Shown: one piece after another, positions 11,627 to 33,412 of the stretch
Numbering within the stretch: the stretch's first letter is position 1
How the letters are laid out: each line of letters begins with the position of its first letter
Origin: Promethearchaeia archaeon
GTDB lineage: Archaea > Asgardarchaeota > Lokiarchaeia > Sigyniarchaeales > SOKP01
Direction of reading: 5' to 3'
Length of the DNA: 48,449 nucleotides
Assembly (NCBI GenBank): GCA_029856125.1
Contig: JAHQWJ010000030.1
Coordinates: 1-48,449, forward strand
Position numbers and translations under genes: made by a program
Notes under the pieces: model-generated
Seen by the model: the letters and a program-made list of their open reading frames with translations, nothing else
Told to the model about the DNA's origin: nothing
The model's database searches: none

Positions 11627-12433
11627 TTACCTAATATGATTCCAATTTTTCATTTTTGTATAATATCTTGAAAACATAATGTAGCAGATATTAGGCATTT
11701 CCTTGTCAAGGTTATTTAAAGTGATATATCGGAGAATGTGATTGATTAGGAAAATTCCCAGAAATTCCATGTGATAGCTACCTACTTTTTTAGAGAGTAC
11801 TTCACCTATGTAAGCGATATTTAGTTTCTCCCGAGCGTTGTAAGTTAATTCAATAGAGATACCTGGAAATATTTCCTTTATAATTTGCCACTTATCAGCT
11901 TTTTTCCTCACTATAGCACCAAGAAATATGGCTAAATCATTTACATCACTATCTTTCAATAAACTAAATGGCTCGGTTCTTTGAATTAAAACCTTTTGCA
12001 TTAATTCTGATTTTTTATCATAAGATTGTTCAAAGGGTTCTCTATTTTGAATCATTCTCTCCATAAAATTAAAAATTATATCAACATAAGTAATGCTATC
12101 TTCACCAGGGATTATATGTACTCTTTCACCTGAAAAAAAGCATTTAAATTCTGCGGTAACCCCATCTCCAAATTCATCGCCGAAATATGTAAAAACTAGA
12201 TGTATAATAACCTCTGGAAACATTTCTAATGTAATCGTCCAATCTTCGTTAAAGCCTATATTTTCGATTATGCCTCCAATGTCCTCTGAAATTATCTTCT
12301 TAAGCGTATCCATGTTGATATCAACGAAGAGCTGATGTTTTGCTTTGCTAACATCTTTTAATTCCTTAACATGGGGGCCTGTTACCCCAGTTGCGTCAAT
12401 TTGTCCTACAGTCCAATATTTAGTTCCAGTTAT
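11627..12433 (-). CDS. internally duplicated protein, DUF3786-like; probable ATA start at 12433 (first ATG at 12313)
   Basis: Frame open from 12445 to 11627; SD-like GGTGGA just upstream of ATA; two repeats 'WTITLEMFPEVIIHL' / 'WQIIKEIFPGISIEL'. Confidence 0.6.
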   Translation of the reverse strand: MTGTKYWTVGQIDATGVTGPHVKELKDVSKAKHQLFVDINMDTLKKIISEDIGGIIENIGFNEDWTITLEMFPEVIIHLVFTYFGDEFGDGVTAEFKCFFSGERVHIIPGEDSITYVDIIFNFMERMIQNREPFEQSYDKKSELMQKVLIQRTEPFSLLKDSDVNDLAIFLGAIVRKKADKWQIIKEIFPGISIELTYNAREKLNIAYIGEVLSKKVGSYHMEFLGIFLINHILRYITLNNLDKEMPNICYIMFSRYYTKMKNWNHIR

Positions 12434-12475
12434 TTTAACTCCACCTTAGAAAAAGTTGTTCTAGTATTATAGAAG

Positions 12476-28765: not shown

Positions 28766-28902
28766 ATTTTTTTTTACATTTTTTTAATTTTAGATAGTAA
28801 TGTGTTGAACTCTGTATAGAACGGTTTAATTGGAATAATAAAATTGAGAAATGATTTCCCTTTACTGGTAAAGTTTTTTTGATTTGTATTATTTTTTCTA
28901 TC

Positions 28903-29544
28903 ATGTCTCAAGATATCGTACAAATTAAGCTTAGCATAGAAATCCCGCAAGATAAATGGCTAGCAACTTTCAATAAAAAATATCCCGAATTGAATTTTCA
29001 TATTCTATCTATCTTTCCTATTGGAGAGAGTTCAGGGATTACATCGTTTCAAATAAGGGGTTCCTCTGTAAAACGTTTTATTTCCGATTTTAAAAAAAAA
29101 TCAACTGAGGGAACTGCCCAAATCTTGTACGAAGGTGAAGACCTTGTAATATTGAACGTAAAGGAAGGTGATCCATGGATATTAAATACCTTAGTTAAAA
29201 CTGAGCTTTTGATATCTTATCCTGTGCTTGTAAAAGGTGGTAAAATCAGAATAGAAGCTATAACAAATCGTTCAAAAGTAGATAGATTTTTAACACAGCT
29301 GAAAAAGAAAGACATAAAAGCGAAAATCGAGCGCATAGGGTATTATTATAAATCGACTCTCCTCACTCAAAGACAAGATGAAATTTTAAATCATGCATAT
29401 CAAAAAGGATACTTTGACATTCCAAGAAGTGTTTCATTAACCGAATTCGCTAATGATTTAAACATTTCAAAATCTGCTCTTTCTGAAACATTGAGGAGGA
29501 TTTTTAAGAAATTAGCTAATAATCACATTAATTCTAGCAATTAA
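28903..29544 (+). CDS. transcriptional regulator with C-terminal Bat-like HTH (HTH_10)
   Basis: 'LTQRQDEIL..AYQKGYFDIPR..SLTEFA..LNISKSALSETLRR'; ATG at 28903 preferred over TTG at 28879. Confidence 0.88.
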   Translation: MSQDIVQIKLSIEIPQDKWLATFNKKYPELNFHILSIFPIGESSGITSFQIRGSSVKRFISDFKKKSTEGTAQILYEGEDLVILNVKEGDPWILNTLVKTELLISYPVLVKGGKIRIEAITNRSKVDRFLTQLKKKDIKAKIERIGYYYKSTLLTQRQDEILNHAYQKGYFDIPRSVSLTEFANDLNISKSALSETLRRIFKKLANNHINSSN

Positions 29545-30656
29545 ATCTGCGATAGCAGTTCCATTAAAGCCCGAGGAATCTCTTTAAAATTGTTTACAGC
29601 AAAAAATTTACCTTTTCCAACTCGAGCTATTTCTCGACAGGTATCGATACCTCTTTCAGCATCGTTCTCAGCGGGTATCCCGATTACATGTAATTTTGGG
29701 TATTTTTTCGCTAATTCAAGAGGGTTTTTCCCTCTATTAAAGTTTCCATCGGTGATTAAAATCCCCGATTTATGTCTTGTTTTTTCCTTAATCTTATTTA
29801 ATTCTTTTAATCCTTTTTCTAAACCAATATTAATATTGGTAAAACCAACTGCCTCCGAATCAAGAATTTCATCTATGATTTTTATGACCGGCTTCTTCTT
29901 ATCTATTTTTTTCAGAACCATAGCTGTGGAATTAAAAAGAACTATTCCATAACTTTCTTTTTCCATATTATAGGCCATCACAGATGTAGTAAGAGCTGCA
30001 TTAAGTAGAAGCTTCCCATACATACTTCCACTTGTGTCTAAGATCATTACAATTTTTCTCTTTTTCTTTTTTCTTTGTATTCCAAAGATATCTTTGTAAG
30101 TAAGACTATTTTTATATATATTTAATGGATTATGTTGAATAGTTTCGTCTAAGTCAAATTCTGGAGACCCAATCTGATAAGAAGGAGCAACTTTTTTAAA
30201 GTTTCCTCTTATTCCTTTACTCGTTATTTTTAACGAAGTTTTTATAATACTTTGTCTTGCAAGTCGTCTAAAAACCTGTTTGTATTGTTTTGAAATTGGT
30301 CGTCTTATAAAAAAGTAAACTTCCGCCATCGAAATTTCAGAATTTTTTGCTTTTTCTGCAAAGAATTGTACACCCTCATCACAATCTAAAGCGTCAGTTG
30401 CAGCATAAACATTCGATTTGAGTAGCCCTAATATTGCTTCGAGGTTTTTATGTTCTATAGATAGGTAAGTTAATTCCTTAATTTGCTTGTAGTCTAGCGT
30501 GTTTGCTAAATGTTGATAATAATCTGGTTTTTTCTTTTGTTTTCTGATTATTTCATACCTAAGAATTTTTTCATCTGGGATTCTTTCTGTATATCTTATG
30601 TGCAGCCTCTTATTCTCAATCTCCTCGGAATTCTCCGCAGAGAAATCATCGATTAT
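29541..30656 (-). CDS. von Willebrand factor A domain protein (MoxR partner); 5' end non-canonical
   Basis: MIDAS 'DTSGSM', 'GFTNI', 'ITDG'; frame open upstream of the ATG at 30329 up to 30692; start uncertain. Confidence 0.8.
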   Translation of the reverse strand: MIDDFSAENSEEIENKRLHIRYTERIPDEKILRYEIIRKQKKKPDYYQHLANTLDYKQIKELTYLSIEHKNLEAILGLLKSNVYAATDALDCDEGVQFFAEKAKNSEISMAEVYFFIRRPISKQYKQVFRRLARQSIIKTSLKITSKGIRGNFKKVAPSYQIGSPEFDLDETIQHNPLNIYKNSLTYKDIFGIQRKKKKRKIVMILDTSGSMYGKLLLNAALTTSVMAYNMEKESYGIVLFNSTAMVLKKIDKKKPVIKIIDEILDSEAVGFTNINIGLEKGLKELNKIKEKTRHKSGILITDGNFNRGKNPLELAKKYPKLHVIGIPAENDAERGIDTCREIARVGKGKFFAVNNFKEIPRALMELLSQI

Positions 30657-31525
30657 TGAAAATCCGACGAATTTAGAACCGATAATACAATGTCAGCGAT
30701 TATCTCCTCTTTTGAGCTAGTAACGCCATCTTCGAGCTCAATTTTATTATATAAAGCCATTATTGAGGTATTAACCCAATTTGCTGAGCTATTGATTTCT
30801 TCAGTTTTAGAAATTAATTGTGCTAGATCAATTGCTCCTCTTATTGAACTTCCTCTTTGTATTGATCTGCTATTTCTTGAATGATGTATTATTTGTTGAG
30901 AGAGTTGTGCGATTTTTTCTCCATCTGAGTTATCTAAATTAGCCTCTTGTTTGATTATAAGAACTTCTTCATCAGAGGGTTGAAAATCCAACTTTATCCA
31001 GATAAACCTATCTTTTAAAGCTTCTCCAATGACAGTCACGCCCACATGGGCTGCAGGGTTTTGAGTAGCGATCGTAAAGAATTTGTCATGAGCCTTAATT
31101 GTTTTTAATTTAGGAATTTCTAAAATACCCTCGTCTAACGCCGTTAAAAGTGAATTTTGTGTGCTTTCAGGCATCCTATTAATTTCGTTTATAAAAAGAC
31201 AACCTCCTTTTAACATAGATGAGGCCAGCGGACCGTAGATATATGAATCTTCTTGATAGCCTTTTGATATCACTAATGGGGGGTCAAAATAACCAACTAA
31301 ATTATGAGGTAGAGTCTCTTCAGAACAATCTATTCGAGCAAAATCAGTATCATAAAATGAAGCAATTGCTTTCGCTATCCTCGTTTTACCTGTTCCTACT
31401 TGGCCTTCAATGATTAAATTTTTATCTACTGACCTTGCCAGAATAATTTTTTTTAATTCTTCAGTTCTTCCAATGATTTTGTATTTACTTTGTATTTCTT
31501 TCACAATCTGAGATGCATTTAGCAT
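30653..31525 (-). CDS. MoxR-family AAA+ ATPase
   Basis: 'IIGR', Walker A GQVGTGKT, Walker B variant LFINE-INR, 'ATQNP', 'EALKDRF', 'GSSIRG'. Confidence 0.9.
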   Translation of the reverse strand: MLNASQIVKEIQSKYKIIGRTEELKKIILARSVDKNLIIEGQVGTGKTRIAKAIASFYDTDFARIDCSEETLPHNLVGYFDPPLVISKGYQEDSYIYGPLASSMLKGGCLFINEINRMPESTQNSLLTALDEGILEIPKLKTIKAHDKFFTIATQNPAAHVGVTVIGEALKDRFIWIKLDFQPSDEEVLIIKQEANLDNSDGEKIAQLSQQIIHHSRNSRSIQRGSSIRGAIDLAQLISKTEEINSSANWVNTSIMALYNKIELEDGVTSSKEEIIADIVLSVLNSSDFQ

Positions 31526-31745
31526 GTTTTCAATAATTAAGCATTTCTAAAATAATTTTATTTTAAAATGTGAATTTATTTTTTCGATTCCATTTTTTGA
31601 TTTAAAAACTTCTTTTCGATTGTTAAAGCCTCCTTAAATAGGTTTTAATTGTTCAAATAAGGTGAATTTTAAATAGAAGTTTAACGAAAAGATTAATTAT
31701 ACGATTTCTTTATGAAAACGAAATTCAAGTAATTTGTGTGTCCTC

Positions 31746-33152
31746 ATGAACAAATATGATATAATAATTGTTGGTGCTGGTCCTGGAGGTTCAATGGCAG
31801 CAAAAATCGCAGCCGATTTGGGATTAAAAACAATTTTCTTTGAGCGCGGGAGAAAACCAGGTGAAAAAAATTCATCAGGATGTGGTTTGGGTCCTCGACT
31901 GTGGCAGGATTTTCCAAGTATGATGAAGGAACTAACACCGGAAAAATGTCCTTCTATGAGAGCAGGTTCTGCTGCTCGAAATTATTTCATCAATCAGGAG
32001 GGTATTGTTGCTGGTTATGTAATGGCTCGTCCCACCGAGTCAGTATCATATGAACCAGCAAAATCTTGGATTACGATGAATTGTTACCGAAGTGAGTTTG
32101 ATCCTTGGCTTGCAGAGTTTGCTATAGATGCCGGTGCTGAATTAAAAACATCAACTTTAATTATTGATCTCTTGAAAAAGGATGGCAAAGTTTGTGGTGT
32201 GATTGATGAGCATAATAATAAATATGAAGCACCTATTGTTATTGGAGCTGATGGAGCAGTTTCGATGGTTGCAAAACAAAGTGGACTAAGGACTAAATGG
32301 GCACAAGATCAAATTACAGTAGTACCTCAATATGATTTTCAGGCAAGTCCTGAAAAAATTGATGATATCATGGGAGATGAAACTCTGGCAGTATGGTGGT
32401 CTGCTATTTTTCCAGCTTCTTATCAAGTGTTCTTTCATGATGGTTTTCATCAAGGTCTTGGCAATTGGTTAAATAAATGGGATAAGAATCCATTATATTA
32501 TCTAAATCGCGTAATAAACCTCAAATATTATCAAAGATTATTGAGAATACTGAATGCCAAACCAAGAGAACTTCAATCTCACCTCCTTCCGTGGTTAAAA
32601 TACCCTTATAACACGCACACTGATGGGGTTATTTTGATAGGTGATGCAGGAGGATTTCCTTGTCCACTTGAAGCTGAAGGAATATATCCTGCTATGGTAA
32701 CAGGGAAAGCTGCTGCAGAAGTAGCAGCGGAAGCAATCGCCTCTGAAGATTTTTCAAAAAACTTTCTCTCAAAATATGATAAAGTATGGAAAAATACAAC
32801 TGTTGGTGAAGATTTCGAAACTGGAGAAGAATTATATAATCTATGGAAAGCACTCCCTTTCAGTCCACAAGAGACGATGTCTTGGTTTGTTCCTATGTTT
32901 ATGGAGGCAATGGGTGGAATTTATGATTGGTCCCAGCCACACACAAAGCGAGTTCGACAGATAGCATCCCAAATTAAATCATACATGCCTAAAGCCCTTC
33001 CCTTCATAATGAAATACGTCTTTCCGCTTGTAGCTAAAATTTTTGAGGAAGATCTTGATAAAATGATGGACCCTCAGAAATTAATGACTGTAATTCCTAA
33101 GGTAATGGATTTAATTCCCAAGAAAAAAAAACCACGGAGGGATGATACATGA
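31746..33152 (+). CDS. FixC/geranylgeranyl-reductase-family FAD oxidoreductase
   Basis: 'YDIIIVGAGPGG', 'ERG..PGEKN', 'RSEFDPWL', 'IGADG', 'LIGDAGG..EGI..AM..GK'; ATG at 31746. Confidence 0.85.
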   Translation: MNKYDIIIVGAGPGGSMAAKIAADLGLKTIFFERGRKPGEKNSSGCGLGPRLWQDFPSMMKELTPEKCPSMRAGSAARNYFINQEGIVAGYVMARPTESVSYEPAKSWITMNCYRSEFDPWLAEFAIDAGAELKTSTLIIDLLKKDGKVCGVIDEHNNKYEAPIVIGADGAVSMVAKQSGLRTKWAQDQITVVPQYDFQASPEKIDDIMGDETLAVWWSAIFPASYQVFFHDGFHQGLGNWLNKWDKNPLYYLNRVINLKYYQRLLRILNAKPRELQSHLLPWLKYPYNTHTDGVILIGDAGGFPCPLEAEGIYPAMVTGKAAAEVAAEAIASEDFSKNFLSKYDKVWKNTTVGEDFETGEELYNLWKALPFSPQETMSWFVPMFMEAMGGIYDWSQPHTKRVRQIASQIKSYMPKALPFIMKYVFPLVAKIFEEDLDKMMDPQKLMTVIPKVMDLIPKKKKPRRDDT

Positions 33153-33412
33153 AATCCAATGGTTTAACAAAACACATTCCTGGCACATTAGATTTTATTT
33201 TTATTGATCAAAATAAATGTAATAGATGTGGGCAATGCATTCTGGTTTGTGTAGCTAACTTATGGCGTAAGATCGACACTGTTATTTCTATTTCAGAAGA
33301 TTATAAAGAGAGATGTTTAGAATGTGCTGCGTGTTATCAAGTTTGTGAAGCTGATGCCATTGATTTTCGTTATCCATCAGGCGGTACAGGAATAGTATAT
33401 GAAAAAGGGTAA
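33149..33412 (+). CDS. FixX-like ferredoxin
   Basis: CxxCxxCxxxC twice, 'CLECAAC', C-terminal 'YPSGGTGIVYEKG'; ATGA overlap with the FixC-like gene. Confidence 0.85.
   Translation: MKSNGLTKHIPGTLDFIFIDQNKCNRCGQCILVCVANLWRKIDTVISISEDYKERCLECAACYQVCEADAIDFRYPSGGTGIVYEKG

Follow-up and report, generated by a model that had tools for sequence, protein, structure and literature searches.

The closest described counterparts of the locus analyzed here include the fs-chlD genes, in which a -1 shift on runs of A yields a ChlI-like and a ChlD-like product (PMC3711429, PMC9227772, PMC5009743), and some of the published genomes carrying them also lack the large subunit (PMC9227772). The heptamer considered below, G_GAU_UUU, has been tested as a -1 site in pea enation mosaic virus (PEMV) RNA2 (PMC4737148), where the four U's and a stop codon 3 nucleotides (nt) after the site were both needed (PMC5009743). 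Among cellular genes of archaea, a review from 2021 contains one experimentally shown -1 shift, that of the fucA1 alpha-L-fucosidase gene of Saccharolobus solfataricus (PMC8211752), and our literature search found no case of -1 frameshifting from an Asgard archaeon. Here we describe two overlapping open reading frames (ORFs) on the minus strand of a 48,449-nt stretch of DNA from a Promethearchaeia archaeon (contig JAHQWJ010000030.1; this whole stretch is hereafter called the window), one encoding a MoxR-type AAA+ ATPase and the other a protein with a von Willebrand factor A (vWA) domain. The comparative evidence, which is drawn from sequences, suggests that the two are very probably one gene read in two ways, with a conserved programmed -1 ribosomal frameshift joining the ATPase to the vWA part.

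The ATPase ORF of the window ends with TCG GAT TTT CAA TAA and is overlapped by the vWA frame, which lies at -1 relative to it, is open from stop to stop between 30692 and 29541 (383 codons) and has no initiation codon of its own, 109 start-less codons lying between an ATA at 30656 and the first ATG at 30329. Past the overlap this frame encodes an acidic linker, a helical region and the vWA domain, and the conceptual product of a -1 slip is an ATPase-acidic linker-vWA protein of 661 amino acids (aa). A first-pass annotation, made from the letters of the window, had proposed this layout for an Asgard archaeon, with the end of the AAA gene, the -1 frame from 30692 to 29541, a first start at 30329, a heptamer at 30665-30659 and a hairpin at 30643-30620; it had noted about 110 protein-like codons without a start and predicted a product of about 661 aa alongside a 290-aa AAA protein. 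These features are found where it placed them, the organism is a Lokiarchaeia/Promethearchaeota archaeon, and the comparative tests described below support its reading of the junction as a -1 frameshift.

What follows on the slip, on how efficient it is and on what the two products do is inferred. Most ribosomes would read GAU UUU CAA and stop at UAA, releasing the 290-aa ATPase, while a fraction would slip back by one base on G_GAU_UUU, a site at which A-site re-pairing is perfect and P-site re-pairing partial, so that tRNA-Phe would pair fully with U_UU and the P-site tRNA-Asp only in part. The slipped ribosomes would go on in the -1 frame (Ser-Ile-Ile-Asp-Asp-Phe...) to complete the fusion protein, whose predicted junction peptide is ...SVLNSSDF-SIIDDFSAENSEEIENK. 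The likely stimulators are the stop codon close by and the conserved RNA downstream of it (GAUGA, a short helix, UUGA). If the analogy with ChlI/ChlD and other MoxR-vWA pairs holds, the two products may form a mixed AAA+ ring bearing an adaptor with a metal ion-dependent adhesion site (MIDAS).

Like the fs-chlD genes (Antonov et al. 2013, PMC3711429; Kuznetsov et al. 2022, PMC9227772), the locus would use a conserved -1 shift, here proposed, close to where the AAA part ends to make one AAA+-only and one AAA+-linker-vWA product; it has in-frame fused relatives and is annotated by gene callers as two adjacent genes. The order of AAA+ domain, acidic linker and vWA/MIDAS domain is likewise that of ChlD. 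The parallel drawn by the first-pass annotation is apt as an analogy. It does not extend to membership, since the ATPase is MoxR/GvpN-like (AAA_3/AAA_5) and falls far short of the ChlI/ChlD type (23.3 bits against TIGR02031, with a cut-off of 499.55; E = 5e-5 for PF01078), the shift site is a U-run beside the stop codon and not A_AAA_AAR, and a search of the window's genome (99% complete) found no match to ChlH/CobN (PF02514), the controls being matched. The first-pass annotation had named the dianthovirus site as precedent for the heptamer. With PEMV the locus shares the identical non-canonical heptamer, after which come a single sense codon and the stop (G_GAU_UUU_UGG_UAG in the virus and G_GAU_UUU_CAA_UAA in the window); PEMV, however, is a plant virus translated on eukaryotic ribosomes that uses several hairpins and a long-distance interaction, for which no equivalent long-range partner was found here. 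The fucA1 case resembles ours in being an archaeal cellular gene whose two ORFs stand at -1 to each other, and in having a heptamer as well as a putative stem-loop, but its heptamer is A_AAA_AAT, and it is interrupted only in S. solfataricus strains, full-length relatives being the rule, whereas the split state reported here is kept over some 19 Asgard families.

The geometry of the overlap, its conservation and the selection on its nucleotides were observed directly. Our Lokiarchaeia set comprised 113 orthologous loci, collected from genome searches and contigs, with 95 distinct junctions, of which 81 belong to the window's own family (f1), the other families of the order contributing 14 loci. 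The vWA frame lies at -1 in 113 of 113 loci, so the arrangement goes far beyond chance, and no conserved canonical start for this frame was found in them. All 95 distinct junctions have, within the overlap, a zero-frame TTT preceded by T, with the ATPase stop 0-2 codons further on (TTT at -6 in 84, at -3 in 8 and at -9 in 3). Since the overlap measures just 13 nt in 61 of these junctions, two loci (L108 and L111) have a TGA at -10 in the -1 frame, and the zero-frame stop follows TTT directly in 8 loci, any frame change shared by all of them would be confined to the four T's. In the -1 frame, 83 of the 95 junctions have Ser (TCA or TCG) immediately past the site, the same position being read in the zero frame as Gln, His, Arg, Ala, Phe or stop.

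Selection at the nucleotide level exceeds what the encoded proteins would require. The f1 junctions follow the pattern GGATTTT, then CAA/CAG/CGA/TAA/TAG, then TAATCGATGATTTCTC, and nowhere in a 300-nt alignment of the 81 distinct sequences is the entropy lower than in the junction block (0.09 versus a mean of 0.70 bits), third codon positions included. Away from the junction TTC is rare in these genes (2 uses versus 20 of TTT). Three GC-rich relatives (53-62% GC) retain GAT TTT TTC at the junction; in the rest of the same genes one of them (L032) uses TTT 0 times versus 21 for TTC, and T is the last base of only 6% of its codons. Since the U-run is retained against codon bias, protein coding alone is insufficient as an explanation. 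In f1 the same block could also be read as a translational bypass, in which the peptidyl-tRNA would take off at GAU UUU and land on GAU UUC 17 nt downstream, skipping Ser-Ile-Ile-Asp-Asp-Phe: these codon pairs form a conserved direct repeat 17 nt apart, the net change is -1, the stop follows the take-off site, and the 16 nt in between show nucleotide-level conservation. Such a bypass is nevertheless hardly tenable, because L003 and L108/L111 have no Phe landing codon and other families have the U-run and the -1 relation without a matching landing codon, while a one-base slip covers all of them.

The start-less stretch of the vWA frame is real coding sequence, because it can be aligned both with orthologues and with in-frame fused homologues. 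Amino-acid identity in the vWA frame ranges from 40 to 96% among orthologues, and the frame stays open. An assembly error or a decaying vWA pseudogene as the source of the break deserves practically no credence, given this open and conserved frame and a break that recurs in Lokiarchaeia (113 genomes, each assembled independently) as well as in 33 of 40 further Asgard loci. Homologues of the vWA protein are annotated in databases at 262, 296, 322, 350, 354 or 367 aa, the length being set by the position of an incidental start, and all align with the start-less N-terminal stretch of the window. In both of the checked homologues that have an 'M' near the junction, the start is a TTG Leu codon 17 nt past the ATPase stop, and the junction block is intact, with GAC in one and an early TAG stop in the other. 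Judged from these alignments, public annotations most likely truncate the vWA protein at arbitrary internal starts. In a predicted model of the vWA frame, which is of low confidence (mean pLDDT, the predicted local distance difference test, 57.5 from 18 sequences), the N-terminal ~38 residues are disordered and helices follow. The in-frame AAA-vWA homologues, 606-719 aa long, are 32-51% identical to the ATPase and remain colinear across the junction, and the fused Promethearchaeota form has no U-run at the junction position.

The arrangement is not limited to Lokiarchaeia. A close ATPase homologue is present in 225 of 301 Asgard genomes, nearly always as an ORF of ~290-320 aa, and among the 150 matches listed, fused forms (~717-732 aa) are confined to one family. 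In a further Asgard sample of 40 loci from ~19 additional families the vWA frame lies at -1 in 33, at +1 in 6 and is fused in frame in one. In the 33 loci at -1 the stop comes 0-2 codons after a slippery heptamer (five codons after it in L160), this heptamer being T_TTT_TTA, T_TTT_TTC, T_TTT_TTT, G_GGT_TTT, A_AAT_TTT, A_AAT_TTC, G_GAT_TTT or A_AAC_CCT, and a strict X_XXY_YYZ heptamer occurs in 33 of the 47 overlaps outside f1, where ~3 would be expected from the control rate of 0.0096 per codon. Five of the six +1 loci have a spacer of 7-10 nt plus a canonical ATG and, by these marks, are genuine splits; they comprise L143, L144, L170 and L171 (family f31) and L151 (f22), and an in-frame TTT TTT is still present in their ATPase C-terminus. 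In a tree of 106 ATPase domains the -1 state forms the paraphyletic backbone of the Asgard clade (80 rows), in which the fused Njordarchaeales-type clade, P0142 and the ATG-split lineages are nested, and an outer clade is wholly fused. Incidental starts near the junction are scattered over this tree as singletons (8 changes in 8 rows). A single origin of the split state inside Lokiarchaeales, suggested by a first, narrower tree, was overturned by the wider sampling. The -1 arrangement appears to be old and to have been maintained across Asgard archaea.

Slippage of the RNA polymerase on the T-run would offer another way to reach the fusion, since some transcripts with one extra U would have the two ORFs in frame. 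The known chlD cases do use long A-runs that permit transcriptional slippage, and some Asgard families have T6-T7. Runs known to be prone to slippage are, however, far longer than four T's, and four T's are all that the window and the entire f1 family possess; moreover, A_AAT_TTC, G_GGT_TTT and A_AAC_CCT suit the re-pairing of tRNAs rather than a homopolymer length, and a hairpin placed 8 nt downstream is a signal of the ribosomal kind. We therefore regard transcriptional slippage as very improbable.

Evidence for such a downstream signal came from the families outside f1, in which the structure of the 45 nt past the heptamer has a mean z of -1.45 versus -0.06 for controls (Mann-Whitney p = 3e-8). 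In ~22 of these 47 loci the order is heptamer, 8 nt, GA, a helix of 5-10 base pairs (bp), GAU, GA, with helix sequences that vary by family (GGAGGU/ACCUCC, GGGAAUUC/GAAUUCCC, GGAGAU/AUCUCC, AGGGAGCUG/CAGCUCUCU). As the helices are kept while their sequences and the encoded peptides differ, the helix itself is apparently under selection. The pentamer GAUGA (Asp, then Asp/Glu in the vWA frame) recurs phylum-wide directly after the hairpin, 20-45 nt past the ATPase stop (L021-L034, L132-L169), and GC-rich genomes that favor GAC nevertheless use GAT in it. The f1 family lacks the helix between stop and GAUGA, and its order is GAUGA, UU, a hairpin of the window type, UUGA. A strong stem-loop in f1 was rejected, as the family-wide structure of the 70 nt past the heptamer (95 junctions) has a mean z of -0.17 versus -0.09 for controls, and the alifold consensus reaches only -4 kcal/mol. 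The f1 hairpin keeps its outer 5 bp (86% of cells paired, slid controls not exceeding 67%), and its inner stem is retained only in part; on the alignment, the conserved part in f1 is the flanks of the hairpin (GAUGA ... UUGA), not its inner stem.

Several other RNA-based signals were considered. No conserved long-range partner complementary to the junction block was found within the operon, an Rfam search gave no match at the junction, and pairing with the 3' end of 16S rRNA (...GGAUCACCUCCU) was discarded, as the match of GAUGAUUU to it is weak and sits on the wrong side of the site. One tentative suggestion, which we hold to be doubtful, is that the frameshift signal of the family is a kink-turn-like RNA (GA, helix, GAU, GA) 8 nt past the slip site, which would be bound by L7Ae or another protein and would set the ratio of ATPase to fusion, f1 having a rearranged version of the form GAUGA-UU-helix-UU-GA. 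A kink-turn has a C helix, a bulge of 3 nt on one strand and tandem G.A/A.G pairs to which GA on each strand contributes. In the window the GA's flank the helix symmetrically, and the 0/3 asymmetry of a kink-turn is not seen in the best-supported register.

A number of observations weigh against a -1 frameshift at this locus. The f1 heptamer is not a strict X_XXY_YYZ heptamer and its first base is variable (G 69, A 14 and T 2 across the 95 distinct Lokiarchaeia junctions); related genomes are non-independent samples; the f1 hairpin shows few compensatory changes; and the hairpin of the window, 15 nt past the site, is no better than shuffles (z = -0.75). The hairpin that the first-pass annotation had proposed is present, with its outer pairs preserved, but it is weak, distant and only partly conserved in its inner stem. 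In the alignment of orthologous junctions that this annotation had suggested as a check, the -1 overlap and T_TTT were kept throughout and in-frame fusions were found, but neither the first base of the heptamer nor the whole hairpin proved constant. To these points must be added two that favor separate genes, with re-initiation after the TAA on the near-cognate ATA at 30656 (overlap ATAA) or on ATC at 30653 giving a free vWA protein of ~371 aa: the ATA overlaps the stop in most f1 loci, and a different gene in this genus has near-cognate starts that follow a strong Shine-Dalgarno sequence. That gene, on the minus strand of the window at 11627-12445, has no ATG, GTG or TTG start but an ATA behind the Shine-Dalgarno sequence GGTGGAG (start region 12433-12446), and the start codon of its homologues is ATA (5 loci), ACG, ATT or ATG, always behind GGTGGAG, so that near-cognate initiation is seemingly tolerated in the genus. 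A -1 overlap is, in addition, the typical look of ATGA-type coupling.

Re-initiation, which the first-pass annotation had raised as its alternative, is nonetheless unlikely. The ATA is replaced by GTA in 9 of the 95 distinct junctions (the CAG variants), and in the TAG and TAC variants the ATC gives way to GTC or CTC, while in the other families of the order 7 of 14 loci have TTA, CTA or GTA at the position of the ATA and no canonical start at the overlap. The junction has no Shine-Dalgarno sequence ahead of it, the GGA of the heptamer being variable. Re-initiation would leave unexplained why the U-run persists despite the codon bias, why strict heptamers are in excess and why a hairpin is located where initiation would occur, and the lineages that are truly split have gained a spacer and an ATG. 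A conserved ATG within TCGATGA was also examined as a start and rejected, since it lies in the zero frame rather than the vWA frame and opens an ORF of 17 codons only. The programmed -1 frameshift is favored because it best fits the frame relation, the heptamers, the selection on the U-run, the downstream structure in other families, the fused homologues and the ATG-bearing split lineages taken together.

The two protein parts place the locus among the MoxR-vWA systems. The ATPase scores 70.5 bits against Pfam AAA_3 (cut-off 27) and 70.4 bits against AAA_5 (cut-off 22), as expected of the MoxR class, and its matches in the PDB are MoxR (2r44, 51 bits), followed by CbbQ (5c3c) and NorQ (9qhd). 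The adjacent vWA part reaches 40.8 bits against Pfam VWA (cut-off 23.8) and has the DxSxS of a MIDAS. As in CbbQ/CbbO, NorQ/NorD and RavA/ViaA, an ATPase of the MoxR-class clade is combined with a MIDAS-bearing vWA partner; in those systems, however, the partner is separately initiated, whereas the vWA part described here has no start of its own and is fused to the ATPase in sister lineages. Nearly all aligned AAA-vWA members, split or fused, have INE(I/L/V)NR as Walker B, with Asn-Glu in place of Asp-Glu, and the outgroup P0157 has IEEFNR. The ATPase also matches several of the six AAA domains of eukaryotic midasin, and the conceptual fusion has the same order of parts (AAA, acidic linker, MIDAS domain). 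A special kinship with midasin was rejected, since its 138 bits are a sum over the six AAA domains and the best single domain, with 47 bits, is no better than bacterial MoxR with 51.

The coordinates of the features discussed are collected in Table 1. The pair is neighbored by a gene for a helix-turn-helix (HTH)-type regulator (28879-29544, plus strand) and by a gene for a flavin adenine dinucleotide (FAD)-dependent oxidoreductase with a ferredoxin-like gene (31734-33412, plus strand). Fused homologues are found in unrelated neighborhoods (histone and STT3; CDC48 and EAP30), and gene context therefore gives no clue to the function.

Table 1. Features of the ATPase-vWA locus in the window; the shift and its signals are proposed
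Feature	Position	Strand	Remarks
AAA+ ATPase ORF, zero frame, 290 aa	31525-30653	minus	MoxR/GvpN-like; Walker A GTGKT, Walker B INEINR; product without shift
AAA+ stop codon TAA	30653..30655	minus	one codon past the heptamer
vWA frame after the putative shift	29541..30659	minus	from TCA 30659-30657; stop TAA 29543-29541
First ATG/GTG/TTG of the vWA frame (ATG)	30327..30329	minus	internal Met codon; a start here gives a truncated 262-aa product
Candidate shift site G_GAU_UUU (GGATTTT)	30659..30665	minus	inside the ORF overlap; T_TTT part unchanged across all 128 distinct -1 junctions examined
Junction block, 26 nt, GGATTTTCAATAATCGATGATTTCTC	30640..30665	minus	third codon positions conserved; rare codons ATC and TTC used
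GAUGA	30646..30650	minus	8 nt past the heptamer; Asp-Asp in the vWA frame; same pentamer 3' of the hairpin in most other Asgard families
Hairpin TCTCTGCGG / AGAATT / CCGAGGAGA	30620..30643	minus	begins 15 nt past the heptamer
UUGA	30616..30619	minus	immediately 3' of the hairpin; with the 5' GAUGA-UU may form a symmetric GA-UU-helix-UU-GA
vWA domain	29574..30053	minus	intact MIDAS motif DTSGS; Pfam VWA, residues 214-373 of P0001, E = 3.6e-10

For the databases, the proposed frameshift would mean that hundreds of vWA proteins of these organisms are cut at arbitrary internal starts. For the protein family, it would extend the logic of one gene for both an AAA+ ring and an AAA+-vWA adaptor from chelatases to MoxR-type chaperones, and the kink-turn reading, if true, would represent a protein-dependent -1 stimulator of a cellular gene that has been retained from the ancestor of the Asgard archaea onward. 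The candidate is kept over ~19 Asgard families with signals that resemble those of eukaryotic viruses, namely a U-rich heptamer, an adjacent stop codon and a helix ~8 nt away, and it might thus serve as a natural test bed for the shifting of frame by the ribosomes of the closest archaeal relatives of eukaryotes.

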